64,000 nt of DNA from Candidatus Moraniibacteriota bacterium (GCA_942490825.1 CALNYG010000013.1:55311-119310); one strand, 5' to 3'; shown: positions 12,196-56,719, counted from the stretch's first letter. Notes: a model not told the origin generated them from the sequence alone. Numbers and translations are program-made.

Positions 12196-13383
12196 ATGAA
12201 AAAAAGGACTTTTTCAGGGGTACAACCAAGTGGTGATTTACACATTGGGAATTATTTAGGGGCGATTAAAAATTGGGTGGAGCTTCAGGATAATTATGAA
12301 TCGATTTTTTGTATTGTTGATTTGCATGCGATTACTGTTCCGCAGGATCCGAAGGAATTGCGAAAGAAGATTATTGAGATTGCGAAGATTTATATTGCGG
12401 CGGGAATTGATCCGAAGAAATCTTCTATTTTTGTGCAGTCGCAAGTTAAGGAGCATTCTGAATTAATGTGGATCTTAAATACGATTACGAAGAATGGAGA
12501 TTTAACTAAAATGACACAGTTTAAAGATAAATCTGGTGTGGATTTTGATAAACTTGAATTAGTTTTAAAAGAGGCAGAAAAACAGAGATGGAATGATATG
12601 GATGTAGATAGTAGAAAAAGAGCGGAAGATGAATTTAAAAGGGTTTCGGAAGAACAATCACCAGTTGAAGCTTTTAGACAAACTTTTGACATAGCTCGTT
12701 CAGCAACTTACGAAGATGCAAGAAAATATTTTCAAAAATTCAAAGAAGACTTTAATTCAATTGGAGTTGGCTTATATGATTACCCTGTTTTGATGGCGGC
12801 GGATATATTACTTTATAATACGGCGATTGTGCCGGTGGGAGAAGATCAGTTGCAACATGTTGAACTTGCACGAACTTTAGCACGACGATTCAATCATCAA
12901 TTTGGAGAAACTTTTATTGTTCCTGAAGCGGAAATTAAAAAAGAAGGAAAACGAATTATGGGACTAGATAATCCAGAAAAGAAAATGAGTAAGTCAGCAG
13001 AAAGTATTTATAATTACATTGCACTTAATGACGAAGCTGATGTTATTCGTAAAAAGATTCGAAAAGCCGTAACAGATAGTGGTAGTGAAATTGTATATCA
13101 AGATGACAAGCCAGCTTTGAAAAATTTAATTAATATTTATAGTTTACTTTCTGAAAAATCAATTCCAGAAATTGAGGAAATGTATAAAGGAAAAGGCTAT
13201 GGTGATTTTAAAAATGATTTGGCGGAGGTTGTGGTAGATTTTATTACTCCTTTTCAAGAGCGACTTAATGCGATTAGTGATGAGGAAGTTATGAAAATTT
13301 TAGCAGATGGTGCGGATAAAGTTCGAAAGATTGCAGAAGAAAAAATGAAAGAAGTTAAAGAGAAGGTTGGCTTTTTAGTTTAA
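12196..13383 (+). CDS. trpS: tryptophan--tRNA ligase with a ~70-aa internal insertion
   Basis: FSGVQPSGDLHIGNYLGA (HIGH-type motif), KMSKS at KKMSKSAES, YPVLMAADIL. 395 aa, versus the ~330 aa usual for bacterial TrpRS. Confidence 0.9.
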   Translation: MKKRTFSGVQPSGDLHIGNYLGAIKNWVELQDNYESIFCIVDLHAITVPQDPKELRKKIIEIAKIYIAAGIDPKKSSIFVQSQVKEHSELMWILNTITKNGDLTKMTQFKDKSGVDFDKLELVLKEAEKQRWNDMDVDSRKRAEDEFKRVSEEQSPVEAFRQTFDIARSATYEDARKYFQKFKEDFNSIGVGLYDYPVLMAADILLYNTAIVPVGEDQLQHVELARTLARRFNHQFGETFIVPEAEIKKEGKRIMGLDNPEKKMSKSAESIYNYIALNDEADVIRKKIRKAVTDSGSEIVYQDDKPALKNLINIYSLLSEKSIPEIEEMYKGKGYGDFKNDLAEVVVDFITPFQERLNAISDEEVMKILADGADKVRKIAEEKMKEVKEKVGFLV

Positions 13384-13387
13384 TTTT

Positions 13388-13409
13388 AAAAAGCCCGTGC
13401 GGCGAGCAC
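13388..13409 (+). repeat. GC-rich intergenic repeat, copy 1 (AAAAAGCCCGTGCGGCGAGCAC)
   Basis: Read directly. Its A-run and GCC pair with GGCTTTTTA at 13369-13377, and the loop contains the trpS stop codon. Confidence 0.8.
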
Positions 13410-13456
13410 AATTTAATTTAGAATTATTAATTAATAATTAAAAAAAAGATAGTAAA

Positions 13457-14779
13457 ATGAAGATTACAATAATAGGAACGGGTTATGTAGGTTTGGTTAG
13501 TGGAACATGTTTTGCTGATGCAGGTAATGATGTTATGTGTATTGATTTGGATAAGAAAAAAATAGAAGGTTTAAAAAATGGTGCGATGCCAATTTATGAG
13601 CCAGGACTAGAAAAGTTAGTTAAGAAAAATTATAAATCAGGAAAATTAAATTTTTCTACTAATATTGCGAAAGGAATTAAATTTGGTGACATTATTTTTT
13701 CAGCAGTGGGAACTCCTCCAGATAAGGATTTCCGAGCAGATTTGTCAGCAGTTAAAGCAGTGGCAAAAAGCTTTGGGCAAAATGCTAATAAGTTTAAAGT
13801 TTTCGTAAATAAATCTACAGTGCCAGTTGGGACAGGAAAAATGTGCAAGCAAATTATTGAAAAAGAATTAAAAAAGCGAAAGAAAAATGTTAATTTTGAA
13901 GTTGTTTCTAATCCTGAATTTTTACGAGAAGGTTCAGCAATTAAAGACACAACCAAGCCAGATCGTGTAGTAGTTGGAACAGAAAGTGAAAAGGTAAAAG
14001 AGATGATGAAAGAACTTTACAAACCATTCGTTACTAAGAAATCTCCTTTGATTTTCACGGATATTGAAAGTGCGGAAATTATCAAATATGCTTCCAATTC
14101 ATTTTTAGCGACAAAGATTTCTTTTATAAATGAAATTGCTAATTTTTGTGAAAAGGCAGGGGGAAATGTTGAGGAAGTAGCTAGTGGAATGGGATTGGAT
14201 AGTCGTATCGGTCCGAAGTTTTTAAATGCAGGAATTGGTTATGGAGGGTCTTGTTTTCCAAAGGATGTGCAAGCCTTGATTCAAACTGGAAAACAAGTTG
14301 GTTATGATTTTCGTATTTTGAATGCAGTGGAAAGTATTAATAAGAGTCAAAAAGGTAAGCTTTTTAATATTCTTAAAGAAAAAATGCCTAAGATGGAAGG
14401 TAAAACAGCGGCTATTTTAGGGCTTGCTTTTAAGCCAGAGACTGATGATATGCGTGACGCTCCATCTATTAAAATTATTAAAAAACTTCAAGCTGAAGGT
14501 GTGAACATCAAAGCTTTTGATCCAGTTGCCGTAGAAAATGCTAAAAATTATTTTTCTAAAGTAAATCTTAATTTTTCAGAAACTGCTTATGATGCAATTG
14601 AGGATGCTGATGTTGTTCTAGTTTTGACAGAGTGGAATGAGTTTAGAAAGCTAGATTTGAAAAAGGTTGAGAAATTGATGAAAGGTAATTTGGTAATTGA
14701 CGGAAGAAATATTTTCTCAATAGAAGATTTGAATAAAGCTGGATTACAAGGTACGTGTATCGGTTGTTTACAAAATTAG
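13457..14779 (+). CDS. ugd: UDP-glucose 6-dehydrogenase
   Basis: MKITIIGTGYVGLVSG (Rossmann fold), GGSCFPKD catalytic Cys motif, 440 aa. Confidence 0.88.
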   Translation: MKITIIGTGYVGLVSGTCFADAGNDVMCIDLDKKKIEGLKNGAMPIYEPGLEKLVKKNYKSGKLNFSTNIAKGIKFGDIIFSAVGTPPDKDFRADLSAVKAVAKSFGQNANKFKVFVNKSTVPVGTGKMCKQIIEKELKKRKKNVNFEVVSNPEFLREGSAIKDTTKPDRVVVGTESEKVKEMMKELYKPFVTKKSPLIFTDIESAEIIKYASNSFLATKISFINEIANFCEKAGGNVEEVASGMGLDSRIGPKFLNAGIGYGGSCFPKDVQALIQTGKQVGYDFRILNAVESINKSQKGKLFNILKEKMPKMEGKTAAILGLAFKPETDDMRDAPSIKIIKKLQAEGVNIKAFDPVAVENAKNYFSKVNLNFSETAYDAIEDADVVLVLTEWNEFRKLDLKKVEKLMKGNLVIDGRNIFSIEDLNKAGLQGTCIGCLQN

Positions 14780-14856
14780 ATTATTGGACATGTAAAATGT
14801 AGATGATTAGACTTGTGAAGATATTGTGATAATGTTTTCGAAGTTGTTTTCTTGCA

Positions 14857-14884
14857 GTAGAGTTCAGGTATACCTGAACTCTAC
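14857..14884. repeat. 28-bp perfect palindrome GTAGAGTTCAGGTATACCTGAACTCTAC (possible terminator of ugd)
   Basis: Self-complementary over all 28 nt. Not followed by a clear T-run. Confidence 0.6.
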
Positions 14885-14940
14885 TAACGGGAAAATAAAA
14901 AAACTTTTTAAAAAATAATTCTTTAAAAATAAATAAAAAC

Positions 14941-15525
14941 ATGAAGAAAATATTGGTAATTAAAGGACATCCAAAAGAAGAGGGTTTTTGTAATACTCTG
15001 GCGGATAGGTATATTAAGGGTGTAAAGACTGCAAAAAATAAAGTGGAAGTTGTGAATGTGGGGGATCTGTGTGTTGAGAGATTTATTAAATTCGAACATA
15101 AGAGTAATCCTGATTTACCTTTGGATTTTATTAAGGTTCAAAAATTAATAACTTGGGCAGATCATTTGGTTTTTGTTTATCCAATTTGGTGGGCAACTCC
15201 TCCAGCGATGATGAAGCTTTTTTTGGAAGTTATTTTGACTTCAGGTTTTGCTTATAAATATAAAGCTCCAATTCATGGTATTATTCCGAGTTGGGATGAA
15301 TTATTGTCTGGTAAAACTGCCCGATTGATTGCTACAATGGATTCTCCATCTATTTTTTATAAATGGATTTTACGTGATCCTTCTTATAAAATGATGAAGG
15401 CTAATTTGAATTTTTGTGGGATTAAACCTGTGAAAAGGAGTTATTTTGGTTCGGTTAAATTGTCTTCTGATGAGAAGAAAAAGAAGTGGTTGGAGAAGAT
15501 TTATCGGGTTGGGATGAAGGAGTAA
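14941..15525 (+). CDS. flavodoxin-like fold NAD(P)H dehydrogenase (quinone) family protein
   Basis: MKKILVIKGHPKEEGFCNTLADRY...ADHLVFVYPIWWATPPAMMKLF is typical of the Flavodoxin_2/NQO family. Confidence 0.7.
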   Translation: MKKILVIKGHPKEEGFCNTLADRYIKGVKTAKNKVEVVNVGDLCVERFIKFEHKSNPDLPLDFIKVQKLITWADHLVFVYPIWWATPPAMMKLFLEVILTSGFAYKYKAPIHGIIPSWDELLSGKTARLIATMDSPSIFYKWILRDPSYKMMKANLNFCGIKPVKRSYFGSVKLSSDEKKKKWLEKIYRVGMKE

Positions 15526-15542
15526 ATAAATTATATATTTTT

Positions 15543-16460: not shown

Positions 16461-16465
16461 AAAAC

Positions 16466-16550
16466 ATGCTCAAAAAAATCCTAAAAAACATTCAGTTACA
16501 ACAAATTCCGACCACTCCAAAAAGAAATCATCAACAATATTTTTAACAAG
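16466..16550 (+). pseudogene. decayed duplicate of the recQ 5' end
   Basis: ATGCTCAAAAAAATCCTAAAAAACATTCAGTTACAACAAATTCCGACCACTCCAAAAAGAAATCATCAACAAT aligns with recQ 19093-19170 at roughly 80-85% identity with a 2-nt gap. It encodes FSYNKFRPLQKEIINN versus FGYNKFRPLQKEIIDN. Confidence 0.8.
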
Positions 16551-16574
16551 TTTGAAAGATCATAAAATATACCA

Positions 16575-17507: not shown

Positions 17508-17510
17508 AAG

Positions 17511-18962
17511 TTAAAATTGAAAATAAATAAAAGGGGTTTCGATTGTTTGCATATACATACCAATAGTAAAGATTATCAATGAATAAAAAGCCCAGCGAAG
17601 AGATCTTCTACAACTCAGACCTAATTTAGCAATTGCATGTTCTTGTTCTCTGCCGAGCCATTCAATAATCAAAAAAATAAATATTAAAAAAGATAAGGTT
17701 ATTACTCCATTCATATCTTTAAGTGCAGGGATTGTAAATAGAGAAAACGAAAATATTCTTGAAATGTAATTTATTGCATGACTAACATTTTCAGCTCTGA
17801 AAAATATCCAAGCAAAAATAGTTAGACCAAAAGTTAATGCCATAAGGAAAAATTCCTTTATGCTTGGTAAATATTTTCCTTTTGCCACAACTTCTAAATT
17901 AGACCTGTTTTTATTAGCTAACAGAAGTGGTAAAAAATAAATTGCATTTAATGCTCCCCAAATTATAAATGTCCAATTAGCACCATGCCAAAATCCACTG
18001 ACTATAAAAATAATAAAAATATTTCTAATTTTTTTCCAAATACTACCACGACTACCACCTAATGGAATATAGAGATAATCTCGAAACCATGTGGAAAGTG
18101 AGATGTGCCAGCGTCTCCAAAACTCTGCGATGTCTCTAGAAAAATAGGGAAATGCAAAGTTTTGCATTAAATTAAAGCCAAAAAGTCTCGATGTACCAAT
18201 TGCTATATCTGAGTAACCTGAAAAATCTCCATAAATTTGAAAGGCGAAAAAAAATGCTCCCAGCACTAAAGTACTACCTGAATAATCACTTGAATTATTG
18301 AAAATTAGATTTGCATATTCTGCACAGTTATCCGCTATCACAACTTTCTTAAATAAGCCCCAAAGTATTTGACGCATTCCATCAATAGATTTTGAATAGC
18401 TAAAAATTCTTTTTTTATGAAATTGAGGGAGTAAATTAGAAGCTCTTTCAATTGGTCCTGCAACTAATTGAGGAAAAAAGCTTACAAAAGCAGAAAATGC
18501 AATAAAATCTTTCGTTGGTTTTATTTTCTTTTTATATACATCTATTGTGTAGCTTAATGTTTGAAATGTGTAGAAACTTATACCTACAGGTAATATTATA
18601 TTTAAAGTATTTGCTTTTATCTCTGTTCCAAATAATGAGAATGCTGTAATAAAATTTTCTAGAAAAAAATTGTAATATTTAAAAAATCCTAAAAATCCAA
18701 GATTAACAAGAATGCTTATCCAAAATAATATTTTTCTTCTTTTGGCATTTTCTTCTTTCGAGAGTTTAATTCCAATAGAATAATCAATGACTGTGCTAAA
18801 AAATATCAATGCTAAAAATTTATAATCCCACCATCCATAAAATAAGTAACTTGTTGCAAAAAGTAAAAGGTTTTGTAACCTTAAGTTTTTGTTTGTTACA
18901 AACCAGTAAAGTATAAAAACTATAGGTAGGAATATTGCAAAATCAATAGAATTAAAAAGCAT
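17511..18962 (-). CDS. MBOAT family O-acyltransferase (AlgI/DltB-like)
   Basis: Multi-pass membrane protein with RRWHISLSTWFRDYLYIPLGGSRG, the conserved His motif of AlgI/DltB. Confidence 0.85.
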   Translation of the reverse strand: MLFNSIDFAIFLPIVFILYWFVTNKNLRLQNLLLFATSYLFYGWWDYKFLALIFFSTVIDYSIGIKLSKEENAKRRKILFWISILVNLGFLGFFKYYNFFLENFITAFSLFGTEIKANTLNIILPVGISFYTFQTLSYTIDVYKKKIKPTKDFIAFSAFVSFFPQLVAGPIERASNLLPQFHKKRIFSYSKSIDGMRQILWGLFKKVVIADNCAEYANLIFNNSSDYSGSTLVLGAFFFAFQIYGDFSGYSDIAIGTSRLFGFNLMQNFAFPYFSRDIAEFWRRWHISLSTWFRDYLYIPLGGSRGSIWKKIRNIFIIFIVSGFWHGANWTFIIWGALNAIYFLPLLLANKNRSNLEVVAKGKYLPSIKEFFLMALTFGLTIFAWIFFRAENVSHAINYISRIFSFSLFTIPALKDMNGVITLSFLIFIFLIIEWLGREQEHAIAKLGLSCRRSLRWAFYSLIIFTIGMYMQTIETPFIYFQF

Positions 18963-19092
18963 TGAATTTAAAATTTATAGGTTAATAGGTAAAGTTTAGA
19001 ATTAAGTCAAGATTTGTAGATTGTGTAAAATTAAGATATATTAAAAGTACATTTAGTGATTATATCATGAAATTTGTAATAATAAATAAATC

Positions 19093-21306
19093 ATGCCACA
19101 AAAAATTCTAAAAAAAACATTCGGTTACAACAAATTCCGACCGCTTCAAAAAGAAATAATAGACAATGTCTTAAATAAAAAAGACACCGTCGTATTAATG
19201 CCAACAGGAGGCGGAAAGTCACTTTGCTATCAAATTCCTGCAATCCACCTTCAAGGATTAACAGTTGTCGTTTCACCTTTGATTTCCTTAATGAAAGATC
19301 AAGTTGATGCTTTGCGACAAAATGGAGTTGAGGCTGCTTTTTGGAATTCGACACTTTCGCTTGAACAACAAAATAAATTACAAGAAAAAATACATAATAA
19401 AGAATTAAATCTTCTTTACATAGCACCAGAAAGATTTGGTGCAAGTGGATTTTTACAATTTTTACAAAATCTTAAAGACGACATTTCACTTTTCGCTATA
19501 GATGAGGCACATTGTATTTCTGCATGGGGACACGATTTTCGTCCAGATTATCGAAATTTACAAGTTCTAAAAAATGATTTTCCGAAAATTCCCATTATTG
19601 CACTTACAGCCACAGCGACGCCGAAAGTTTTACAAGATATAATTTCCAACTTAAATTTAAATAAAGATTTTAAAGTTTTTCAAGGATCCTTTGATCGAAA
19701 AAATTTATTTTATGAAGTGAAAAGAAAACAAAAATCTTTTGATCAAATTTGTTATTTTTTAAATAAAAGAAAAAAAGAATCGGGAATTATTTATTGTTTC
19801 TCACGGAAAAAAGTAGACGCAATGGCTCAAAAGTTAAAACATAAAGGCTTTTCAGTTTTGCCGTACCATGCAGGATTAAGTCCGCAAATTAGAGCAAAAA
19901 ATCAAGATAAATTTATTAAAGATGAAGTGCAAATTATTGTGGCAACGATTGCTTTTGGGATGGGAATTGATAAACCAGATGTGCGTTTTGTAATTCATGA
20001 TAGTTTGCCAAAAAATATTGAAAGTTACTATCAAGAAACTGGGCGAGCGGGACGTGATGGTGATCCAGCACATTGTCTTTTATTTTTTTCTTATGGCGAC
20101 AAGCGAAATATTGAATTTTTCTTTAATGATATTTCGGATGAGTCTGAAAGAAAAAATGCTGAAGAAAAGTTGCAAAAAATGATTGATTTTTGTGAACAGA
20201 AAAGATGTCGTCGGCAAATGCTTTTAAATTATTTTGATGAAGATTTTTCAATTTCACCAGATAGAAGTGACGATGAGGCAAAAAAATGTTGTGATTTTTG
20301 CGTGAATCCTCCCGATGTTTTTGATGCGACGGAAATTTCTTTTAAAATATTTTCAGCGATTGCACGGACTAATCAACGTTTTGGCATGATGACAATTATT
20401 GATATTTTAAAAGGTAGTAAAAATCAAAAAATGGTGGGACGAGGTTTTGAAAAATTGTCAGTTTTTGGAATTGTTACAGATTTTTCTAAAGATGCGATGA
20501 GTGAAATTATTCGACAGTTAATTGATCGAAATTTTTTGCGATTAACAAAAGATGAATTTCCTGTTTTGAAATTAACACAACAGGCAGCTGAAGCAATTTC
20601 ACATAGAAAAATGATTAGTCTTTTTTCAATTAAAAAAGATTTTATTGAATCAAGTACAAATGTTCAGGAAGAATTTGAGTTTGATGAGGAACTTTTTGAG
20701 GACTTACGTATTTTACGAACAAGAATTGCTCAAGAGAAAAATCTTCCACCTTATGTTATTTTTCATGATAAGGCTTTGCGTCAGATTGCAGCAGTTCTAC
20801 CAACTTCGAAAGATGATTTAGAAAATATTTCAGGTATTGGTTCGCGAAAAATTAATGATTATGGTGATGGTGTGATTGAGGTGGTGCAGGATTTTTGTGA
20901 AAGGAAAAAAGTTGATAAAGATGTTCATAAAGATAATATTGATTTTGATGAAATTAATAAGACGGAAGTTAAAATTGCACCACCGAATGGTCGCTCTGAG
21001 GATATTTTAAATTTATTGAAACAAGGTAAGTCTGTTCTGGAGATGACTAATATTTTTGGAATTAAGGAAGGGACAATTTTTGCTCATATTGAACGTTTAA
21101 TTTTTTCAGGTGATATTGAGGGAATTGATTATTTTGTTGATAAAGAAACTCAGATTGTGATCGAGAATGCTTTTGATGGTAATTTTAAACAGAATCTTTC
21201 TGTTATTAAAGAGAGATTGGAGGACGATTTTAGTTATGATGAGATTAGGTTGGTGAGAGTGATTGGATTGAGAAATAAGGAAAAGAAAGTTATAATTAAG
21301 ATATAA
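19093..21306 (+). CDS. recQ: ATP-dependent DNA helicase RecQ
   Basis: FGYNKFRPLQKEII, MPTGGGKSLCYQIPA, DEAHCISAWGHDFRPDY, a Zn-binding C-rich region, an HRDC-like region (LRILRTRIAQEKNLPPYVIFHDKALRQIA) and an extra C-terminal domain. Confidence 0.9.
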   Translation: MPQKILKKTFGYNKFRPLQKEIIDNVLNKKDTVVLMPTGGGKSLCYQIPAIHLQGLTVVVSPLISLMKDQVDALRQNGVEAAFWNSTLSLEQQNKLQEKIHNKELNLLYIAPERFGASGFLQFLQNLKDDISLFAIDEAHCISAWGHDFRPDYRNLQVLKNDFPKIPIIALTATATPKVLQDIISNLNLNKDFKVFQGSFDRKNLFYEVKRKQKSFDQICYFLNKRKKESGIIYCFSRKKVDAMAQKLKHKGFSVLPYHAGLSPQIRAKNQDKFIKDEVQIIVATIAFGMGIDKPDVRFVIHDSLPKNIESYYQETGRAGRDGDPAHCLLFFSYGDKRNIEFFFNDISDESERKNAEEKLQKMIDFCEQKRCRRQMLLNYFDEDFSISPDRSDDEAKKCCDFCVNPPDVFDATEISFKIFSAIARTNQRFGMMTIIDILKGSKNQKMVGRGFEKLSVFGIVTDFSKDAMSEIIRQLIDRNFLRLTKDEFPVLKLTQQAAEAISHRKMISLFSIKKDFIESSTNVQEEFEFDEELFEDLRILRTRIAQEKNLPPYVIFHDKALRQIAAVLPTSKDDLENISGIGSRKINDYGDGVIEVVQDFCERKKVDKDVHKDNIDFDEINKTEVKIAPPNGRSEDILNLLKQGKSVLEMTNIFGIKEGTIFAHIERLIFSGDIEGIDYFVDKETQIVIENAFDGNFKQNLSVIKERLEDDFSYDEIRLVRVIGLRNKEKKVIIKI

Positions 21307-21902: not shown

Positions 21903-22205
21903 ATGAACAAAAAACAACCGCAGTCAAACAATCAAATAAAACTTGCAGATAATATCGCAGGAGCAGAATATGCAAATATCGCACAAATCATGCATAATAA
22001 AGAAGAATTTCGTTTAATGTTTGCACATATTTTTGAACCGACTGGAAAAGTAGTTGGCAAAGTAACAGTTACGCCCGGGCATTTCAAGAGGATGGTAAAA
22101 GCGATGCAGGAAAATTTAAAAAAGTACGAAGAGCAGTTTGGTGAAATTGAAAAATCAGAAGGTCCTAGTTCTGGAGGGATCGGGTTTGCGGATAGAAAAG
22201 AGTAG
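21903..22205 (+). CDS. DUF3467 family protein
   Basis: GAEYANIAQIMHNKEEFRLMFAHIF...VTVTPGHFKRMVKAMQENLKKYEEQFGEI matches my recollection of the DUF3467 pattern. Confidence 0.65.
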   Translation: MNKKQPQSNNQIKLADNIAGAEYANIAQIMHNKEEFRLMFAHIFEPTGKVVGKVTVTPGHFKRMVKAMQENLKKYEEQFGEIEKSEGPSSGGIGFADRKE

Positions 22206-22211
22206 TTTTTT
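22137..22211 (+). repeat. 75-bp direct repeat, copy 1 (functional 3' end of the DUF3467 gene)
   Basis: TTTGGTGAAATTGAAAAATCAGAAGGTCCTAGTTCTGGAGGGATCGGGTTTGCGGATAGAAAAGAGTAGTTTTTT. About 90% identical to 22541-22615. Confidence 0.85.
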
Positions 22212-22540: not shown

Positions 22541-22615
22541 TTTGGTGAAATTGAAAAGTCAGAAAGTCCTATCTCGGGAGGGATCGGGTTTGCGGATAGA
22601 AAAGAATAGTTTTTT
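22541..22615 (+). pseudogene. 75-bp direct repeat, copy 2 (orphan DUF3467 3' end fragment)
   Basis: Encodes FGEIEKSESPISGGIGFADRKE-stop with no upstream gene body. Same stop-codon context and T6 run as copy 1. Confidence 0.8.
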
Positions 22616-23614: not shown

Positions 23615-23646
23615 ATTTTGTTGATTTTTTTAAAATTATGTAGTAT

Positions 23647-23664
23647 AGCCCGTGCGGCGAGCAC
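23647..23664 (+). repeat. GC-rich intergenic repeat, copy 2 (AGCCCGTGCGGCGAGCAC + T6)
   Basis: Read directly. Confidence 0.8.
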
Positions 23665-23704
23665 TTTTTTAATCATGCTGAAAAGTTTAAATAAATCATA
23701 AATT

Positions 23705-26221: not shown

Positions 26222-26224
26222 AAT

Positions 26225-27430
26225 ATGGGAAGCTATGCATCATTTAAGATAAAAGATTATGAAGTTCTTTGGATGAAAAGCTACATTAGTCCACTTGTGG
26301 CAAGTCTTTTTATAGAAAGTGATAGGATTGAAAAAGATGATGGTAATGACAAATATAGGTATATCTATTATCAAACAAATGTTGAAACTATAAAAAAGAG
26401 ATTGGATATTATGGGATTTAATCTTGAAACATTAAAATGTGCATTTCATAAATCTAAAAGGTGTAAGTTGGATAATTTAAATGAGAAAAATAATGTAAAT
26501 TTTTTAGATAAATTTACTTTTGAAGAGTATTTAATTGCTTTAAAAAAAATTTATGACAGTAAGATAGATTTTTTCTTAAGTGAAAATAATTTATCGCATG
26601 AGGAAGTAGAAAGGATTAAGGAAGATGATCCATACGTTAAATACGTATTAGAAGAATGTGAAAGTTTTGGTGATTTAAGTATCGAATGTGTATTAAGAGG
26701 ATTTTTAGAAAAAATAGAAGATGACACCAGTGTTTCGGTAGATGTATCAGCGTTAATAGATGCGGGTTATTATGAAGAAAAAGATAAGATAGTTGAAAAA
26801 GAATCAGATATAAATAAAACAATTATTTTCACAGAAGGAAAGTATGATACATCAGTTATAAAACAGAGTATGAAATTATTGTATCCGCAATATGTGAAAT
26901 ATTTTTCATTTTTAGATATCGATTTAGCTAATCTTGAATTAGGATCAACTAGAGTAGTTACATATTTAAAATCTTTTATTTCGGCAGGAATTACAAATAG
27001 GGTTATAGTTTTATTTGATAATGATGTGGAGGGGATTTTTTGTAAAGAAGAGTTATTAAAATTAAAAAAAATTCCGAACAACTTTTGTATTCAAACGTAT
27101 CCCGATATAGATATTGCAAAAAATTATCCGACAAGGGGTCCTGCTGGGATAGAAAAAATAGATATTAATGGATCGGCTTGTAGCATTGAATTATATCTTT
27201 GTGAGAATGTTTTAAGAGAAAATAATGATTTAATTCCAATACAGTGGAAGTCTTTTAATGAAAGGATGGAAAAGTACCAAGGCTCTTTTTCTAGTAAAAA
27301 TAAGAGGCTGATACAGAAAAAGTATAATAATATTTTAAAGGATAAAAAAAATATAGAAAAGTATGACTTTAATAATATGAAGACTTTATTAGAAAGTATT
27401 TTTAGTGCCTTTGATGATAAGGTTTTATGA
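26225..27430 (+). CDS. Toprim-domain protein with an uncharacterised N-terminal domain (HEPN/Toprim-associated-like); putative defence nuclease
   Basis: TIIFTEGKYDTSVI (conserved Glu) and VLFDNDVEG (DxD) about 65 aa apart fit a Toprim fold. The N-terminus MGSYASFKIKDYEVLWMKSY...LFIESDR resembles, from memory, the N-terminal domain annotated as HEPN/Toprim-associated. Starts 3 nt after the pheT stop. Confidence 0.5.
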   Translation: MGSYASFKIKDYEVLWMKSYISPLVASLFIESDRIEKDDGNDKYRYIYYQTNVETIKKRLDIMGFNLETLKCAFHKSKRCKLDNLNEKNNVNFLDKFTFEEYLIALKKIYDSKIDFFLSENNLSHEEVERIKEDDPYVKYVLEECESFGDLSIECVLRGFLEKIEDDTSVSVDVSALIDAGYYEEKDKIVEKESDINKTIIFTEGKYDTSVIKQSMKLLYPQYVKYFSFLDIDLANLELGSTRVVTYLKSFISAGITNRVIVLFDNDVEGIFCKEELLKLKKIPNNFCIQTYPDIDIAKNYPTRGPAGIEKIDINGSACSIELYLCENVLRENNDLIPIQWKSFNERMEKYQGSFSSKNKRLIQKKYNNILKDKKNIEKYDFNNMKTLLESIFSAFDDKVL

Positions 27431-27529
27431 TAATTATAAAGCCAATTTGTAATAGCTACATTTTGAAATACGCAAATCAAACATTCTACAAGTAAAAATA
27501 AATTAATTTTGAGTAATAACTGAAAAATG

Positions 27530-27564
27530 TTAAAATATGTATAGGTAACCTATACATATTTTAA
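27530..27564. promoter_or_regulatory. 35-bp perfect palindrome (17-bp arms, 1-nt centre) 22 nt upstream of the R-M gene
   Basis: TTAAAATATGTATAGGT-A-ACCTATACATATTTTAA, verified base by base. Confidence 0.6.
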
Positions 27565-27585
27565 TTTTCCAAAATATAATTTATT

Positions 27586-30039
27586 ATGACTAATTTAAGA
27601 AAAAATGAAGCAAAAGGAGATATAAATTTATTTAATTTTATCAAAGAAAATAGAATTTACAGTAAAGATTGGACTGTTCAAAAGCAAAATAATAAATTTA
27701 TTCAAGAAATTTTAGATAAAACTAGTAAAAAGGGTAATGGAAATAAAGGTTATCCAGATTTGATTTACGTTAATGAAAATAAAAAATTATTAATTTTAAT
27801 TGAGAATAAAGATCAAATAAAAAGTCATGTTTCTAAAAATGAAGATAATCCTGTGGATTTTGCTGTTGATGGAATAAAGCATTATTTATCTTTTTTTACT
27901 GATGATAAATTATTGGAAGAGAAAGAAACCATTAAAAAATATTTTAAAGATTGGAAGATAATCGGAATTGCTTTTTCGGGAGATATTAATGATGAATATA
28001 ATCATAGACTAGATACATATGTTATTGAAGGTAATAATGTTAAAAATATTAACAAAAATGAAATTTTAGACGAAGAGGATTACTTGGCTTTTTTTGAGAA
28101 CGTCGATTTAGAAAAGATAGCTAATGATATTTCAAAATCTTCAAGTGAGATCAATACTTTGTTAAGAAATTTAGACTCACAGAAAAGACCTGTGCTTTTG
28201 AGTGCTTTAATGGTTTGTTTGTTTGAAAAGCCTACTTTTAGAAACTCTTTTAGAGAAAATTATTCAAATTATGATACTGATTATATTATTTCTAATATAC
28301 CACTTACAGTTGAAAAAATTCTTAAAAGTGAGAATATAACTCAGGAAAAAATAAATGTTCTTATAAATGAGTTAGCTTTCATGAAGACAGATAAGGATTT
28401 AAATGACACTGATATTTTAAAAGATATTTTAGTTGAATTGCAAGATAATGTTATTCCTCTTTTTGATAAAAAAACAAATTATGATATTATTGGAAAATTT
28501 TATGAGGAATTTTTAAGATATGCAGGAATTACAAATGTTAAAAAAGGTATTGTATTAACTCCAAATCACATTGCTACGTTATTTACAGAATTAATTGATA
28601 TAAAAACTGATGATATTTTTTTTGATCCAGCTTGTGGGACGGGAGCTTTTTTGATTGCGGGAATGAATAAACTTATTGATAAAATCAATAATTCTAGTTT
28701 AGTTGATAAGCAAGATAGAATTAAGAATATAAAAAAGAAACAGCTTATCGGATTTGAAAAAAGTAGTACAATGTATTCTTTGGCAATTTCAAATATGCTT
28801 TTTCGAGGAGATGGAAAATCTCAAATTTTTAACGAAGACTTTTTTTCAGAAGAGTCTAAAAAAGTTTTGAAAAATTTAAAGCCTACAATTGGTTTTGTTA
28901 ACCCTCCATACAGTGGCAAAGATAACAAAAAAAATCCTACAAAAAAAGAAATTCAATTTTTGGAGTTAATGTTAGATAATTGTAGTAGATATGGAATTAT
29001 TATCGCTCCACTTTCGACTTTTTTTAAGGATGAAAATTACAGAAATAGGATTTTAACAAAACATACTTTGAAGTACATGATTAATATGCCAAGTGATTTG
29101 TTTCAACCAAATGCTTCAGCTCCTACAGCAATTGCAGTTTTTGAAACAAATGAACCTCATGGCGATAATAAAGTGGTATTTTATGATTTGAAAGACGATG
29201 GTTTTGTTTTGTCTAAAAATAAAGGAAGAACTGATGTTTTTAACAAATGGGGCAGTGTAAAAAAAGAATTGTTAAAAAAAATAAAAAATCCATATGAAAA
29301 TGAAGATTTATTAAAATTGGTATATAAAAAAATAACAGGGGACGATGAGTGGATTATTCAAGCTCATTCAAAAAATAATTATAATGATCTAAATAACGTA
29401 AATTTTGATAAAAATTTAAAAAAGTTTTTAATATTTTATTTTAGACATCGTCTAAATTTAATTAATAAAAAAATTGATGAAATTACTTTAGTGGATATTT
29501 TTCGTAAAAATGGATTATCTAGTAATTCAATTTTAGATAATCATCTCGAATTAAATACAGACACATGGAAAGAATTTAGTTTGACAGATGTTTTTTCTCT
29601 TTCGTTAGGTAAGCCAATTCATAAAATACAAATATTTGAATCAGTTGATGATGGAGTTACTCCGTATATAACAAGAACTGCAAAAAACAATGGGACAGAG
29701 TTATTTTTGGATTCAAGTAATTTAGGAGATAAGGTGTCTAAAGGTAATTGCATTACTATTGGGGCTGAAGGCTTGAAATCATTCTATCAAAAAGAGGATT
29801 TTTTGACGGGTAATAAAATTAACATATTAAGAAATAAAGAAATTAATTTACACAGGGCTTTGTTTATTTGTACAGTTTTAGATTTTATAATAGAAGAAAA
29901 ATATACTTATGGAAGAGCTGTTGTAAAAAACAGATTGGAGAATGAAAAAATAAAACTTCCAGTAGATAAAAATGGAAATCCAGATTGGCAGTTTATGGAA
30001 GATTATATAAAATCATTGCCTTATTCTTCAAGTTTATAA
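27586..30039 (+). CDS. single-chain restriction-modification-specificity enzyme (Type IIG-like: PD-(D/E)xK nuclease + N6-adenine methyltransferase + HsdS-like TRD)
   Basis: N-terminus GYPDLIY...LLILIENKD (PD...ExK). FDPACGTGAFL (SAM motif I) precedes VNPPYSG (motif IV). The C-terminal ~180 aa (KEFSLTDVFSLSLGKPI...) resemble one type I S-subunit target-recognition domain. Confidence 0.7.
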   Translation: MTNLRKNEAKGDINLFNFIKENRIYSKDWTVQKQNNKFIQEILDKTSKKGNGNKGYPDLIYVNENKKLLILIENKDQIKSHVSKNEDNPVDFAVDGIKHYLSFFTDDKLLEEKETIKKYFKDWKIIGIAFSGDINDEYNHRLDTYVIEGNNVKNINKNEILDEEDYLAFFENVDLEKIANDISKSSSEINTLLRNLDSQKRPVLLSALMVCLFEKPTFRNSFRENYSNYDTDYIISNIPLTVEKILKSENITQEKINVLINELAFMKTDKDLNDTDILKDILVELQDNVIPLFDKKTNYDIIGKFYEEFLRYAGITNVKKGIVLTPNHIATLFTELIDIKTDDIFFDPACGTGAFLIAGMNKLIDKINNSSLVDKQDRIKNIKKKQLIGFEKSSTMYSLAISNMLFRGDGKSQIFNEDFFSEESKKVLKNLKPTIGFVNPPYSGKDNKKNPTKKEIQFLELMLDNCSRYGIIIAPLSTFFKDENYRNRILTKHTLKYMINMPSDLFQPNASAPTAIAVFETNEPHGDNKVVFYDLKDDGFVLSKNKGRTDVFNKWGSVKKELLKKIKNPYENEDLLKLVYKKITGDDEWIIQAHSKNNYNDLNNVNFDKNLKKFLIFYFRHRLNLINKKIDEITLVDIFRKNGLSSNSILDNHLELNTDTWKEFSLTDVFSLSLGKPIHKIQIFESVDDGVTPYITRTAKNNGTELFLDSSNLGDKVSKGNCITIGAEGLKSFYQKEDFLTGNKINILRNKEINLHRALFICTVLDFIIEEKYTYGRAVVKNRLENEKIKLPVDKNGNPDWQFMEDYIKSLPYSSSL

Positions 30040-30040
30040 C

Positions 30041-30304
30041 ATGACCTACTACGTCTACATCCTAAAATGTTCCGACCAAACACTCTACACAGGAATCACC
30101 ACAGACCCAAAACGCCGAATCCATGAACACAATAATTCAAATAAACTAGGCGCAAAATACACCCGACCCAGACGCCCCGTAAAACTAGTCTACACCAAAA
30201 AATACCCCACACGCTCAGAAGCAACTAAAGAAGAGATACGAATAAAAAAACTCTCACGTAAACAGAAAGAATCGCTAATAAGCTCATCTAAAAGCTCTTT
30301 TTAA
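30041..30304 (+). CDS. GIY-YIG nuclease family protein (UPF0213-like)
   Basis: YYVYILKCSDQTLYTGITTDPKRRIHEHN...R...E. ATG lies 1 nt after the stop of the R-M gene. Confidence 0.8.
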   Translation: MTYYVYILKCSDQTLYTGITTDPKRRIHEHNNSNKLGAKYTRPRRPVKLVYTKKYPTRSEATKEEIRIKKLSRKQKESLISSSKSSF

Positions 30305-30406
30305 GAAAATGACTATTATAAATAGTTAGACAGTTTTCAAAACAAAAACTATTGCTTTTTTTTCTTTACTATAGTATATTCAAGTTATTATAATTTAAAA
30401 AAATAA

Positions 30407-33037: not shown

Positions 33038-33069
33038 AATTAAAGTTTTTTAACTTAACTATTGTAGTT

Positions 33070-33090
33070 AAAAGCCCGTGCGGCGAGCAC
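33070..33090 (+). repeat. GC-rich intergenic repeat, copy 3 (AAAAGCCCGTGCGGCGAGCAC)
   Basis: Read directly. Its 5' A-run pairs with TTTTAACT at 33048-33055 (partner AGTTAAAA at 33066-33073). Confidence 0.8.
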
Positions 33091-48579: not shown

Positions 48580-48603
48580 TTTCTATAAAATTTGAGTTTT
48601 CTT

Positions 48604-50167: not shown

Positions 50168-50182
50168 AAATAATTATTTTTT

Positions 50183-51354: not shown

Positions 51355-51396
51355 TTCTTTATTTTACGATATTTTATTTACAGTCTTTTTCGGTTT

Positions 51397-51438
51397 AAAA
51401 GACTGTGCGGCGAGCCTGCCTGTTCGGCAGACAGGTAC
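51397..51438 (+). repeat. GC-rich intergenic repeat, copy 4 (long variant with nested hairpin)
   Basis: AAAAGACTGTGCGGCGAGCCTGCCTGTTCGGCAGACAGGTAC. Its first 9 nt pair with CAGTCTTTT at 51381-51389. Confidence 0.8.
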
Positions 51439-51455
51439 AATTTTAAATTTAAATT

Positions 51456-52322: not shown

Positions 52323-52369
52323 TGATGGTTTTTTTATTAACTTTTGTGGAAATTAATATTTTAAGTTTC

Positions 52370-52410
52370 AAAAGCCTGTGCGGCGAGCCTGCCTGTCGGC
52401 AGACAGGCAC
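52370..52410 (+). repeat. GC-rich intergenic repeat, copy 5 (long variant with nested hairpin)
   Basis: AAAAGCCTGTGCGGCGAGCCTGCCTGTCGGCAGACAGGCAC. Inner 8-bp hairpin TGCCTGTC-GGCA-GACAGGCA at 52390-52409. Confidence 0.8.
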
Positions 52411-52421
52411 TTGAATTATTT

Positions 52422-52449
52422 TTGAAATGATTTTAAATCATGTTATACT
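52422..52449 (+). promoter_or_regulatory. sigma70-type promoter candidate for ispG
   Basis: TTGAAA, 16-nt spacer, TATACT. Confidence 0.45.
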
Positions 52450-52497
52450 AGGTCAGTTGTGTGAAAGCAATATTATTTTACATTTAAGTCAAATATT

Positions 52498-53682: not shown

Positions 53683-53782
53683 TTTTTGATTTAGTACAAT
53701 TATTTTATTTAAAAAATGATCTTGAGGAACAAACACATATTTGATAGAGAAATAAGTTATATAAATTTAGACATTAGAAGTC

Positions 53783-53899
53783 ATGAAAAAAAATGAAAAA
53801 GGAGCTGTTGCTACTGGACATCCAAAAGTTAGTGAGGCAGGCAAAATTATATTAGAATCAGGTGGAAATGCTTTTGATGAAATTATTAGAAGATTTTGA
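53783..53899 (+). pseudogene. 38-codon remnant of a gamma-glutamyltranspeptidase N-terminus
   Basis: MKKNEKGAVATGHPKVSEAGKIILESGGNAFDEIIRRF-stop matches the G.VAT.HP.AS.AG..IL..GGNA.DA N-terminal signature of GGT. The rest of the gene is absent. Confidence 0.6.
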
Positions 53900-53922
53900 T
53901 AAAAAAGTATTTAAATTTAATT

Positions 53923-55032
53923 ATGTCAAAAATAAAAACATCACAGCGGGCAGAAAAAATGTCGGTGAGTGGTATCAGGCGTGTTTTTGAATTGTCTCAG
54001 AGTATGAAAGATACGATTGATTTAAGTATTGGAAAGCCTGATTTTGCAGTACCTGAGATTATTAAAGAAAAAGCCAAACAAGCGATTGACGCTGATCTTA
54101 ATTCATATTCTTTAACAACTGGTATTCCAGAATTACGTCAGGCAGTTGCTCAGAAATTACGTGATAAAAATAAAATTAATGCTAGTGAAGATGAAATTAT
54201 AATTACTTCTGCGGTTTCAGGCGGCATGAGTATTATTTTACCTGTTCTAATTGATCCAGGAGATGAAGTGATTATATTTGATCCATATTTTGTTTCTTAT
54301 AAACAACTAGTATCTTTGTATAATGGCGTTCCAATTATTGTACCAAAAAATGATAATTTTTCACTGAATATTGACTGGTTGCAAAATGCAATTACTGATA
54401 AAACAAAAATAATTATTATCAATTCGCCAGAAAATCCAACAGGACATGTTTGGAGTAAGGATGAATTGAGACAAGTTATTGTGTTAGCTAAAAAATATGA
54501 TCTAACAATTATTTCTGATGAAATTTACGAAGACTTTATTTATGAGGATGATTGCCCACATATTTCACCAGCTTCATTATATGATAAAGTTGTAACTTTA
54601 AATGGTTTTTCTAAATCTCATTCAATGACAGGTTGGCGAGTTGGATATTTGCACGCACCAAAAGAAATTATTGAACAAGCTATTAAGGTGCAACAGTATA
54701 CTTTCGTCTGTGCTCCAACTCCTTTTCAATACGCAGCTCTGAGTGCGTTTGACTGCGATATTTTAGAATACGTAGCTGATTATAAGGAGCGAAGAGATAT
54801 GTTGTATTTGGCGTTGTCTAAAAAGTATGAAATTGTGCAATCACAAGGTGCTTTTTATTTTTTTGTAAAATATCCTAGTGATCCAGATAAATTCATTCAG
54901 TCTTGTTTGGATAATGATTTATTGGTTGTTCCAGGGAATGTATTTAGTGAAAAAAATAATTATTTTCGTATTTCCTTCGCTGCTTCAAAAGAAAATATTA
55001 AAAGGGCTATTGAGGTTTTTGAAAGGCTTTAA
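53923..55032 (+). CDS. class I/II pyridoxal-phosphate-dependent aminotransferase (aspartate aminotransferase-like)
   Basis: INSPENPTG, and NGFSKSHSMTGWRVGY (PLP-lysine motif). ATG 53923 is preferred over the track's TTG at 53896. Confidence 0.85.
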   Translation: MSKIKTSQRAEKMSVSGIRRVFELSQSMKDTIDLSIGKPDFAVPEIIKEKAKQAIDADLNSYSLTTGIPELRQAVAQKLRDKNKINASEDEIIITSAVSGGMSIILPVLIDPGDEVIIFDPYFVSYKQLVSLYNGVPIIVPKNDNFSLNIDWLQNAITDKTKIIIINSPENPTGHVWSKDELRQVIVLAKKYDLTIISDEIYEDFIYEDDCPHISPASLYDKVVTLNGFSKSHSMTGWRVGYLHAPKEIIEQAIKVQQYTFVCAPTPFQYAALSAFDCDILEYVADYKERRDMLYLALSKKYEIVQSQGAFYFFVKYPSDPDKFIQSCLDNDLLVVPGNVFSEKNNYFRISFAASKENIKRAIEVFERL

Positions 55033-55161
55033 AATATTTTTGTAGAAATGTTGGTTTATTGTGTCTGAATATGTTGTATGATTTAGGTTTATTTGAATTC
55101 TGTGACAAGTCTTGATTTTTTCCGTAGTTTTGATATTATAGACTGTATTGAAGTGATTTTT

Positions 55162-55233
55162 GGTCCCATCGTCTAGCGGCTAGGACGCCAGGTTCTCATC
55201 CTGGAAACCGGAGTTCGATTCTCCGTGGGATCA
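55162..55233 (+). tRNA. tRNA-Glu (anticodon CTC)
   Basis: Acceptor GGTCCCA/TGGGATC, D-arm GTCTAGCGGCTAGGAC, anticodon stem CCAGG/CCTGG with loop TTCTCAT, T-loop GTTCGATTC. Confidence 0.88.
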
Positions 55234-55490
55234 CACATTAATATAAAAGGATAGATTTTTCTTACCTGTTTTCTATGTTTTATTAGTTTAAAATAAATTT
55301 TAAAAATTTATTTTAATTTGAATAATATTCTAAAAATTTTATAAAATCTTTTGTGGATATCTTCAGAAGTGCAGTACTTTTTAGTAAATGAAAAAGAAGA
55401 AGTCCATGGTCAAAAATTTCTTTATTGATGATGACTGATAGAAATATTATATTTTATTTAAAATGATTAATTTGAATATCTCCAAGAAGA

Positions 55491-56603
55491 TCAATCCAAA
55501 ATTCCAAATTCATAGGCGTCCATTAAATTTAAAATAGCATGTTGATTTCTATCTACTCGCATATTTTTTGAAGTTTCACTACCTAAAATTCCACCAATTG
55601 CTGCTTTAGGATATTTAGCTTCATTAGTTAATTGAATAGATAAAATATAATCAGCAGCCTCTTTAGAAAAGTTTTTATAACATTCCTTTTTCTCTCTTTC
55701 TGCTAGGTCGTAAGCCATATTAACTCCTTCAGCATGAACAGCAATTACACTGTTAGTTATATTAAATTCAGAACATTTTCCTTTTGGTTTATATGAATTG
55801 AGCATAAAATCATTCATTTCAAAAATAAATTTTTTTACATCTTCGTTTCCAGTAGCTTTATAAAATTTATAGTAAGCTCGACTTTGCCAAGGCGTAAAAG
55901 CAGTATTTGGATTTGCTTTCCAATATTCAGTATAAAAAGGAAAAGCTTTCTCTACAGTTTCTAGATATTTTTCATTTCCATTATATTCATATAATGACAT
56001 TAGAGCCAGGAGTGCTTCTCCTGGATAATAATCTATACCAGTAGCTCGATCAGAAAAAAAGAAAGTCTTCAATCCGCCATGTGATTCTTGTTGATAAATA
56101 ATTCCATTAGCTAATTTTTCTAGTAGATAATTTTTATTAGGATGATCAATTTCCAAAAGAGTTAAAATTGAAAATGCGTTGTAACCTAATTTGATATCGT
56201 CTGGAATTATATCTACATATATAAAATCATCTCCTTCAACATATTCAAAACTGTTTTCAAAATAATTAAATCCTTTTTTGGACAAATTCATTAATTCTTC
56301 ATCTTCAAAATAATTTGCTGCTTTTGCGATAGACCAAAGAGCTCCAGATTCTCTGAGTCGGTGATGTTTTTCAGAATGCTTATTTTCATAGGGGAAATAT
56401 TGATAGTGAATAAAATTTTCATCTTGGTTATTTACAAACCATTGAGCACTAAGTTCAATCGCTTCAACATAAGGATCATTATTGGGGGTTGCTATTATTT
56501 GAGCATCATTTTTAAATGTATTAAAAATAAGTTGATATGTTAGTAATGTAATTGCGAGAAGCGAACAAAAAATTGTGAACTTCCATTGTTTTATAATTTC
56601 CAT
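55491..56603 (-). CDS. membrane-anchored protein, possibly an alpha/alpha-toroid (six-hairpin) fold
   Basis: N-terminal TM segment. Repeated aromatic-rich helical hairpin-like segments (YYPGEALLALMSLYEYNG, WQSRAYYKFYKATG). Assignment is weak. Confidence 0.35.
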   Translation of the reverse strand: MEIIKQWKFTIFCSLLAITLLTYQLIFNTFKNDAQIIATPNNDPYVEAIELSAQWFVNNQDENFIHYQYFPYENKHSEKHHRLRESGALWSIAKAANYFEDEELMNLSKKGFNYFENSFEYVEGDDFIYVDIIPDDIKLGYNAFSILTLLEIDHPNKNYLLEKLANGIIYQQESHGGLKTFFFSDRATGIDYYPGEALLALMSLYEYNGNEKYLETVEKAFPFYTEYWKANPNTAFTPWQSRAYYKFYKATGNEDVKKFIFEMNDFMLNSYKPKGKCSEFNITNSVIAVHAEGVNMAYDLAEREKKECYKNFSKEAADYILSIQLTNEAKYPKAAIGGILGSETSKNMRVDRNQHAILNLMDAYEFGILD

Positions 56604-56697
56604 TTATTGTATTTATTAATCTTTGTTAAGGCTGGTTTATCAATATCTTTATCTTTTATATTATACTATATTTCATATCATAGAGATACTAGGTGAT

Positions 56698-56719
56698 AAA
56701 AAGCCCGTGCGGCGAGCAC
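56698..56719 (+). repeat. GC-rich intergenic repeat, copy 6 (AAAAAGCCCGTGCGGCGAGCAC)
   Basis: Read directly. Lies in a divergent intergenic region. Confidence 0.8.

Follow-up and report, generated by a model that had tools for sequence, protein, structure and literature searches.

A GC-rich intergenic hairpin repeat of constant strand polarity in Candidatus Moranbacteria, possibly a young REP-like element

We analysed a stretch of 64,000 nucleotides (hereafter the window) from a Candidatus Moraniibacteriota bacterium (GCA_942490825.1, CALNYG010000013.1:55311-119310), for which an earlier annotation, made from the sequence alone and termed the original prediction below, had pointed to a dispersed GC-rich repeat. 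The host belongs to Candidatus Moranbacteria, a lineage of the candidate phyla radiation (CPR, or Patescibacteria), and the closest ispG proteins are from Moranbacteria. A pattern scan with GCCYGTGCGGCGAGC, allowing up to two mismatches, recovers six matches in the window, compared to 0.01 expected from dinucleotide shuffles. All six are on the plus strand and between open reading frames (ORFs), which confirms the repeat as originally described. Tabulated together with its relatives, the motif is found on the plus, G-rich strand at 11 out of 11 independent sites (P ~0.001 for random orientation), irrespective of the direction of the flanking genes. Its orientation tracks the replication strand, not the genes, and this is its most informative property, which was missing from the original prediction. 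We consider the chances about even that the motif is a young, lineage-restricted and non-autonomous repeat that resembles repetitive extragenic palindromic (REP) elements and is possibly handled as single-stranded DNA (ssDNA) at the replication fork.

The matches to GCCYGTGCGGCGAGC start at positions 13393, 23648, 33074, 51401 (one mismatch), 52374 and 56703. Four copies correspond to a short form, (A)AAAAGCCCGTGCGGCGAGCAC, and two to a long form, in which a 20-21 nt hairpin insert, CTGCCTGT(T)CGGCAGACAGG, precedes the final (C/T)AC. This division and the coordinates had been given correctly in the original prediction. The six copies, termed w1 to w6, are as follows.

13388-13409, plus strand: w1, short form of subfamily B (AAAAAGCCCGTGCGGCGAGCAC), 5 nt past the trpS stop codon and ending 48 nt before the ugd start codon.
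23638-23670, plus strand: w2, short form of subfamily A (ATGTAGTATAGCCCGTGCGGCGAGCACTTTTTT), 3' of a canonical AT-rich terminator, with the pheT -35 box 40 nt further on.
33070-33090, plus strand: w3, short form of subfamily B, 5' of the pgi promoter, with orthologues in the related loci L124 (L124:9899) and L125.
51397-51438, plus strand: w4, long form (AAAAGACTGTGCGGCGAGC + CTGCCTGTTCGGCAGACAGGT + AC) in the ispF-ispE spacer, with the ispE start codon 18 nt further on.
52370-52410, plus strand: w5, long form in the ispE-ispG spacer, with the ispG -35 box 11 nt further on.
56698-56719, plus strand: w6, short form of subfamily B in a divergent spacer, with the -35 box of the gene starting at 56802 (the 56802 gene) 16 nt further on.

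The distances from the six copies to the next plus-strand start codon are, in order, 48, 107, 78, 18, 88 and 83 nt, in line with the range of 18-107 nt reported before. Promoter-like -35/-10 pairs are found 3' of copies 2, 3, 5 and 6, at 40, 21, 11 and 16 nt, respectively; these are the pairs in front of pheT, pgi, ispG and the 56802 gene that had been noticed originally. No common theme links the genes on either side of the copies, which are trpS/ugd, unknown/pheT, DKNYY-domain gene/pgi, ispF/ispE, ispE/ispG and, at w6, two divergent genes of unknown function. The window has a GC content of ~30%, compared to ~80% for the 17-mer of the motif. Among the GC-rich islands in the intergenic DNA of the window the motif is by far the commonest, and canonical GC-rich terminators are rare there. 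Its density is ~1 per 10 kb, both in the window and in every related lineage that carries it.

The relatives sampled amount to ~72-78 kb from four related lineages, which are represented by the loci L121 and L126 (GCA_023133275.1 and GCA_030630955.1), L122 and L130 (SRR31654895), L124 and L127 (ERZ25073479), and L125 and L128 (SRR26215690). A search of related genomes, as the original prediction had proposed, revealed in ~78 kb five new independent sites (L121:3730, which is the same site as in L126, L122:8826, L124:6763, L130:12326 and L130:17736), as well as orthologues of w3 (L124:9899 and L125) and of w4 (L127:4305). Together with the six window copies this gives the 11 independent sites, or 13 copies if orthologues are counted. 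The carriers (L121/L126, L122/L130 and L124/L127) are Moranbacteria whose ispG is either 88-91% identical to that of the window or a member of its 90% cluster, and a Moranbacteria relative with 76% ispG identity has no motif copy in 21 kb. A profile search of both strands of the window and the relatives recovered near-consensus copies only, and neither diverged nor minus-strand ones. Near-consensus copies in a narrow range of carriers suggest that the motif family is young and confined to a narrow clade. Scanning IMG/VR gave no motif match, and an AT-flanked pattern run against JGI metagenomes gave a single one (L123), a chance occurrence inside GC-rich DNA. The scan of genome contigs with GCCYGTGCGGCGAGC produced chance matches in high-GC genomes, none of the contigs L001-L120 being low-GC. 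Rfam covariance models, both at the gathering threshold and at E values up to 5, match none of the window copies, and we found nothing relevant in the literature on the sequence, on repeats of Patescibacteria or on uptake sequences. Finally, two Logan short-read contigs break exactly at the motif, with L125 starting inside a copy (positions 1-17) and L130 ending just after one (17736-17761), which is what is expected of a multi-copy repeat in a k-mer assembly.

GC skew is strongly positive throughout the window, which makes the plus strand the leading strand, and it is positive in every relative locus. The polarity of replication and that of the genes can be told apart at three of the 11 sites. 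Upstream of w6 lies a minus-strand gene (55491-56603). The L121 copy, shared with L126, lies between convergent genes, ~20 nt past the stop codon of a minus-strand ABC transporter gene, and the copy at L130:12326 has two minus-strand genes as its neighbours and lies 2 nt past the stop codon of one of them. In all three cases the motif is still on the plus strand. The bias is not explained by selection acting through transcription: a reversed copy would do no harm if it lay behind a terminator and in front of the following promoter, yet none of the five copies with a clear downstream promoter is reversed.

Close relatives differ in which of their spacers carry the motif. Five orthologous spacers were comparable, and presence or absence differs at three of them (w5, w6 and L124:6763); w3 and w4 are shared, w3 with L124:9899 and L125, with one C-to-T change. 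At the w4 site the window has the long form and L127 a short form, GCCCGCGCGGCGAGCGC. Within the 21-nt motif the two differ by four substitutions, compared to three in the ~70 nt that flank it upstream and none over 33 nt on the downstream side. Neither the orthologous spacer of L127/L128 nor the DNA 5' of ispG in L121/L126 and in L122 contains w5, and the relatives lacking it (four related loci) keep the TG-extended -10 box and the 5' untranslated region of ispG. Likewise, w6 is missing from the L130 spacer, in which the TTGAAT-N16-TATAAT promoter of the 56802 gene is kept. L124:6763, on its part, is without a counterpart in the window, whose synteny breaks exactly at the 3' edge of the motif. 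Since w4 and w5 have unrelated flanks, nothing beyond the motif itself is repeated; a segmental duplication of w4 giving rise to w5 was considered and rejected, as the similarity of the flanks is no better than chance.

Two features of the window lie where L124 has its copy. The sequence TCTAAAAGCTCTTTTTAAG at 30305-30340, at the very place of the L124 copy, is like the edges (AAGCTC...TTTT) of a variant copy without its core, and may be either an excision scar or a coincidence. The adjacent block between pheT and secG (26225-30304) encodes a HEPN/Toprim_N protein, an 817-amino acid N6 DNA methylase and a small GIY-YIG protein. The syntenic relative L124 lacks this block, which makes a defence or mobile island probable, and synteny is interrupted where L124 has its motif copy.

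An alignment of 12 copies shows that G5, G7-C15 and C17 are invariant within GCCYG-YGC-GGCGA-GCRC. The 4-bp stem, GYGC/GCRC, is paired in all 12 sequences and the 5-nt loop, GGCGA, is invariant. In the short copy of L127 a compensatory double change has replaced a T:A pair of the stem by C:G. An alternative 5-bp stem, GCCCG/CGAGC, contains a central C.A mismatch, and the natural variants fail to keep its pairing. The 5' tract GCCY is variable (GCCC, GCCT, GCTC or GACT). What precedes it defines two subfamilies: subfamily B has a run of A 5' of GCC, and subfamily A (w2, the L122 copy and the two L130 copies) has TGTGTAnnATA 5' of GCCC and a run of T 3' of GCAC. The TGTGTAnnAT of subfamily A was also considered as a promoter -10 box and discarded, since its TG is wrongly spaced and no -35 box consistently accompanies it. 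Folded as DNA, the long form is predicted to adopt a three-way junction, in which the insert pairs with the 5' GCCTGT to form a 6-bp P1 helix (GCCTGT/ACAGGC); in the folding of w5, GC-GGCGA-GC is kept and a CTGCC/GGCAG hairpin is added. That the long form is a degenerate head-to-head dimer is speculative.

According to the original prediction, the 5' part of copies 1, 3 and 4 pairs with an upstream segment that co-varies with it. Three such arms are indeed present.

13369-13378, plus strand: arm of w1, GGCTTTTTAG, pairing with 13386-13395 (10 bp) and overlapping the end of trpS; minimum free energy -15.9, z -2.2.
33047-33055, plus strand: arm of w3, AT-rich, pairing with 33066-33074; z -0.6, indistinguishable from shuffles.
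51379-51389, plus strand: arm of w4, ACAGTCTTTTT, pairing with 51397-51407 (11 bp); z -3.1.

However, the pairing is strong (-9.4 to -11.1 kcal/mol) at only 3-4 of the 11 independent sites, with 2% of control intergenic windows reaching -10, and is lacking at the others. Its mean over the 11 sites, -7.1 kcal/mol for the native sequences, is barely better than the -6.2 kcal/mol for mismatched combinations of motif and flank. What looks like an "arm" in L121 is simply the T tail belonging to a canonical terminator. At the ispF-ispE site, moreover, the window and L127 have the same arm, ACAGTC, whereas the motif side is GACTG, which matches the arm, in the window and the consensus GCCCG in L127. 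An arm that stays the same while the motif side differs, and the small number of strong pairings, indicate that the arm lies outside the repeat and is a facultative local feature.

Based on these results, the life of a REP-like repeat could be pictured as follows. Its recognition core would consist of G-Y-G-C / GGCGA / G-C-R-C, that is the 4-bp stem and the invariant 5-nt loop, with a 5' lead that is (A)n-GCCY in subfamily B and TGTGTAnnATA-GCCC in subfamily A. Spreading would depend on a trans-acting enzyme which recognises the hairpin on one strand, as ssDNA at the replication fork; we infer such a mechanism because all copies share the same polarity relative to the leading strand. The action of this enzyme would resemble that of HUH/Y1 transposases on REPs and on the ends of IS200/IS605 insertion sequences, with the lagging-strand template as its place of action. 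Copies are gained and lost, and remodelled between the short and the long form in either direction, in untranscribed or weakly transcribed spacers between transcription units; there they persist, these spacers being the only harmless place for a 17-mer of 80% GC in a genome of 30% GC. If the copies influence neighbouring genes, for example through a weak terminator-like hairpin read on the minus strand, this would be a secondary effect.

Several observations weigh against this picture. Gene and replication polarity are separable at no more than the three sites described above. Pfam detects no Y1_Tnp domain in the window, nor do the Pfam annotations for ~100 kb of related loci contain one; in particular, the REP-associated tyrosine transposases (RAYTs; Y1 HUH enzymes, PF01797), whose co-occurrence had been put forward in the original prediction as something to look for, are absent from both. 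With its 4-bp stem, the short form falls far below all characterised REPs in size and in palindromic character. The core GTGC-GGCGA-GCAC, originally proposed to form a small hairpin, is predicted to do so in every short copy, but as DNA its stability of -3.4 kcal/mol is no better than that of shuffled sequences (z -0.4 to -0.8). The covariation in the stem amounts to one event, and 42 out of 500 shuffles do equally well. Neither target-site duplications nor clean empty-site junctions were seen, and the AT-rich flanks are too diverged to fix the left boundary of the unit. Finally, the strong conservation of the loop would equally fit a functional protein-binding site.

A function at the level of transcription is conceivable and, in our judgement, rather unlikely. 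The motif might act as a weak intrinsic terminator, stabilise the 3' end of the upstream mRNA, or terminate, in one direction only, antisense (head-on) transcription that originates in the downstream promoter region. Read on the minus strand, subfamily B is GCUCG-CCGCA-CGGGC followed by UUUU(U), which a scan scored as terminator-like, and this reverse-complement motif is found 2 nt (L130:12326) and ~20 nt (L121) past minus-strand stop codons. Subfamily A, on the plus strand, reads GUGC-GGCGA-GCAC with a U run directly behind it. Most copies are located 5-120 nt 3' of a plus-strand gene, in window spacers which, as mentioned above, rarely contain canonical GC-rich terminators, and REPs elsewhere are mostly situated 3' of coding regions and thought to act as RNA elements (PMC3733652). 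However, the stems have only 4-5 bp and a stability of roughly -5 to -6 kcal/mol as RNA. The natural variants GCCTG and GACTG break the 5-bp stem of the minus-strand terminator, whereas it is the 4-bp stem that shows compensation, and subfamily A is without a U run on the minus strand. Both w2 and the L121 copy are already preceded by good canonical terminators, and w6 has no plus-strand gene upstream. Nine of the 11 copies are oriented such that they would not terminate the adjacent plus-strand gene, no copy of the opposite orientation is found behind a plus-strand gene, and the geometry of a terminator faces the adjacent gene end at two of the 11 sites only. In addition, close relatives are without the motif at the same spacers, and terminators are not normally identical in sequence. 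The role of a terminator, one of three offered in the original prediction, is therefore weak.

It is also unlikely, although worth stating, that the motif is not junk at all and instead serves as substrate or signal of an undescribed ssDNA system in Patescibacteria. This could be either a new and extremely miniaturised form of hairpin transposition, carried out by an enzyme that acts on the lagging-strand template only, or a polarity signal selected by the host, analogous to Chi or to the FtsK orienting polar sequences (KOPS). In the second version, the long, hairpin-type motif would be kept intergenic since the AT-rich genes of reduced CPR genomes cannot carry it.

Considered by itself, a selected polar signal of the chromosome, read strand-specifically by a replication, repair or segregation machine, appears quite unlikely. 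It could be an analogue of Chi (RecBCD/AddAB) or of KOPS and the SpoIIIE recognition sequences (SRS; FtsK/SpoIIIE), or a hairpin site on the lagging-strand template. Leading-strand orientation at 11 of 11 sites independent of gene direction, the fairly even spacing (~1 per 10 kb, in the related lineages throughout as well as in the window), the invariant loop and stem, and a G-rich core with GCGG-type words are what such a signal would show. Known polar signals have 5-8 nt, are mostly intragenic and are conserved across a genus or family. In the motif, by contrast, 17-21 nt are conserved; it keeps strictly to intergenic DNA, the 76% relative lacks it, it turns over in close relatives, and its short and long variants are hard to reconcile with a fixed protein site. 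On balance, the polarity is the one feature that fits. Outside full copies, the plus-strand skew of sub-words (GTGCGG, 22 versus 0) is small and as predicted from a GC skew of ~0.3, which also disposes of a Chi-like word nested in the motif.

Least probable of all, and in our view very unlikely, is an operator of a lineage-specific regulator or insulator that would define a regulon, or an ops-like hairpin of the non-template strand to which an elongation factor is recruited. Good -35/-10 pairs do follow L124:6763 and four of the window copies at 11-40 nt, the GC-rich and invariant core looks like a specific protein site, and GCGG(CG)AGC presumably bears a loose likeness to the ops core, GCGGTAGC; however, the downstream genes are without a common theme (ugd, pheT, pgi, ispE, ispG, unknown, secG and Wzz-like), no plus-strand gene follows in L121 and at L130:12326, an ops-like element would have to be 3' of the promoter, which is mostly not the case, and the sites of one regulator are normally degenerate and not 15/15 identical. 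The idea of a unit placed in front of promoters, which the original prediction had listed as one of its options, finds no support as a functional link either, since the promoters of ispG and of the 56802 gene are conserved without the motif in close relatives and the spacing to the -35 box varies between 11 and 40 nt. Any element that lies between co-directional transcription units will be found upstream of promoters, and the association with promoters is, like the co-varying upstream hairpin, largely incidental.

The window and its relatives contain further repeats. A second and unrelated intergenic repeat, GGGGATTCTTCACTTCA ... TTACGTTCAGAATGAC, is present at 61464-61519 and 62748-62803 (both plus strand), with a partial inverted copy at 62646-62698 (minus strand); a compact copy in L130 (12268-12310) is located ~15 nt 5' of a copy of the main motif. 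In L131, the 76% relative that is without the motif, a GC-rich palindrome, CAGCCNNNGGCTGA, occurs at 2905-2918 and 5247-5260, compared to 0.06 occurrences expected, in the spacers 5' of mraZ and of a penicillin-binding protein (PBP) gene. A 67-nt direct repeat of 85% identity (16483-16549 and 19112-19178) brackets the only minus-strand MBOAT and DUF1574 gene pair of the region, which suggests an inserted or inverted cassette. Moreover, a 75-nt repeat (92% identical; 22137-22211 and 22541-22615) lies at the 3' ends of two small neighbouring ORFs, of which one encodes a DUF3467 protein, and probably reflects a recent tandem paralogue.

Three other loci are of note. The only sign of a transposase in the window is a weak rve_3 fragment, unrelated to hairpin elements: the ORF at 384-977 matches this integrase core with an E value of 2.7e-4, below the Pfam cut-off, lies beside tRNA-Met/Met/Asp (1107-1436), and may be a transposase or integrase remnant. 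Ribosomal protein S4 is apparently split into two overlapping ORFs in different frames, 6835-7086 (S4 N-terminal domain) and 7086-7454 (S4 RNA-binding domain), which could be due to a frameshift, a sequencing error or recoding. Finally, L121 (5700-6776), L122 (3316-4350) and L126 (5858-6892) encode a protein of ~350 amino acids that combines Sigma70 region 4 with a HARE-HTH domain, which is unusual for a sigma-like factor.

Dispersed repeat families have hardly been described in the CPR/Patescibacteria, whose genomes are streamlined to ~1 Mb and uncultivated. Extrapolating the sampled density would give ~100 near-identical copies of the motif per genome. Such a family would be unusual in its turnover between close relatives, in the breaks it causes in short-read assemblies and in its perfect co-orientation with replication. 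It would be a marker of recent genome dynamics and could provide a handle for strain typing and for the orientation of replichores in metagenome-assembled genomes, and it would hint at an active enzyme for ssDNA processing in this lineage. Should the polarity be selected rather than mechanistic, the motif would represent a new kind of chromosomal orientation signal.

How does the motif compare with known systems? Some are readily set aside on anatomy: the 5' end of group II introns (GUGCG), as the L127 variant reads GCGCG, and CRISPR/TIGR solo repeats, dif and attC, as there are neither arrays nor paired arms. The features of miniature inverted-repeat transposable elements are not found, since the motif has no terminal inverted repeats, its flanks are unrelated between copies, and filled and empty sites show no duplication, within the resolution that the AT-rich flanks allow. 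DNA uptake sequences and uptake signal sequences (DUS/USS) occur at ~1 per kb, in both orientations and also in genes, in contrast to the motif with its ~1 per 10 kb, single orientation and complete absence from ORFs. Chi and KOPS/SRS share with it the full co-orientation with the leading strand and the spacing, here ~10 kb, but the motif is 2-3 times longer, exclusively intergenic, confined to a narrow clade and equipped with a hairpin that shows a compensatory change. Intrinsic terminators, too, are GC-rich stem-loops beside a run of A or T in a spacer 3' of a gene, and the minus-strand reading of the motif passes a simple scan; unlike them, however, the motif is identical between sites, has a stem of 4-5 bp, is wrongly oriented at nine of 11 sites and is redundant with real terminators at two.

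Closer parallels are offered by mobile hairpin elements. IS200/IS605 elements and palindrome-associated transposable elements (PATEs) have hairpins that are read on one strand and an orientation bias related to the replication fork, which for IS200/IS605 is regarded as a hallmark of one-strand hairpin recognition (PMC5027513, PMC6006769). Their two ends differ, both carry a hairpin together with a guide tetranucleotide, and the elements measure at least 100 nt, whereas the motif is a single unit of 17-42 nt without a second end and with neither tnpA nor tnpB nearby.

The best match is with REPs and their paired form, the REPINs, which are mobilised by RAYTs. Like the motif, they are short, GC-rich relative to the genome, strictly extragenic and hairpin-bearing, occur as near-identical, lineage-specific multi-copy families with subfamilies and presence/absence differences between strains, and are mostly situated between co-directional or convergent genes. 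The motif has many extragenic, lineage-specific copies as well, six in 64 kb of the window and seven in ~72 kb of relatives, with two subfamilies and two length forms. Its 5' half presumably also resembles the arm of an E. coli REP (GCCGGATGCGGCG versus GCCCG-TGCGGCG), a likeness that we treat as a lead only. For RAYT-associated REPs, a cognate, single-copy RAYT gene, usually flanked by REPs, is expected in the genome. REPs are imperfect palindromes of 20-40 nt, with 7-20 fully paired nt in the basal stem and 2-5 nt in the loop (PMC6006769; PMC3333891), and they are cut by Y1 enzymes related to those of IS200/IS605 (PMC3333891, PMC5027513, PMC6006769). In contrast to these basal stems, that of the short form of the motif (nine of 11 sites) has 4 bp, around a loop of 5 nt; a 7-8-bp hairpin or a 6-bp P1 helix is confined to the two long forms. 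Nor does the motif have the conserved GTAG/GTGG (or CGTC) 0-2 nt from the foot of the hairpin: GTAG is found 4-6 nt 5' of GCCC in w2, L122 and w3 only, GTAT, GTAA or an A run takes its place elsewhere, and apart from GCCY the foot shows no conservation. Each of the 13 copies stands alone, and all have the same orientation, whereas REPs are mostly arranged as inverted pairs, in bacterial interspersed mosaic elements (BIMEs) or REPINs. Strict co-orientation with replication, a density of ~1 per 10 kb, a host from the CPR, for which our literature searches turned up no family of this kind, and the lack of a RAYT in the Pfam lists of the window and related loci set the motif further apart.

Thus, since the GTAG foot, a stem of at least 7 bp and inverted pairs all fail, the motif is not a member of the REP family. 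Among the three roles that the original prediction had offered, the REP-like one is nevertheless the best, and fits better than a regulator or a terminator, because the copies are near-identical, intergenic only, confined to one narrow lineage and polymorphic in presence and absence, with turnover, subfamilies and assembly breaks. In its behaviour, then, the motif is REP-like.

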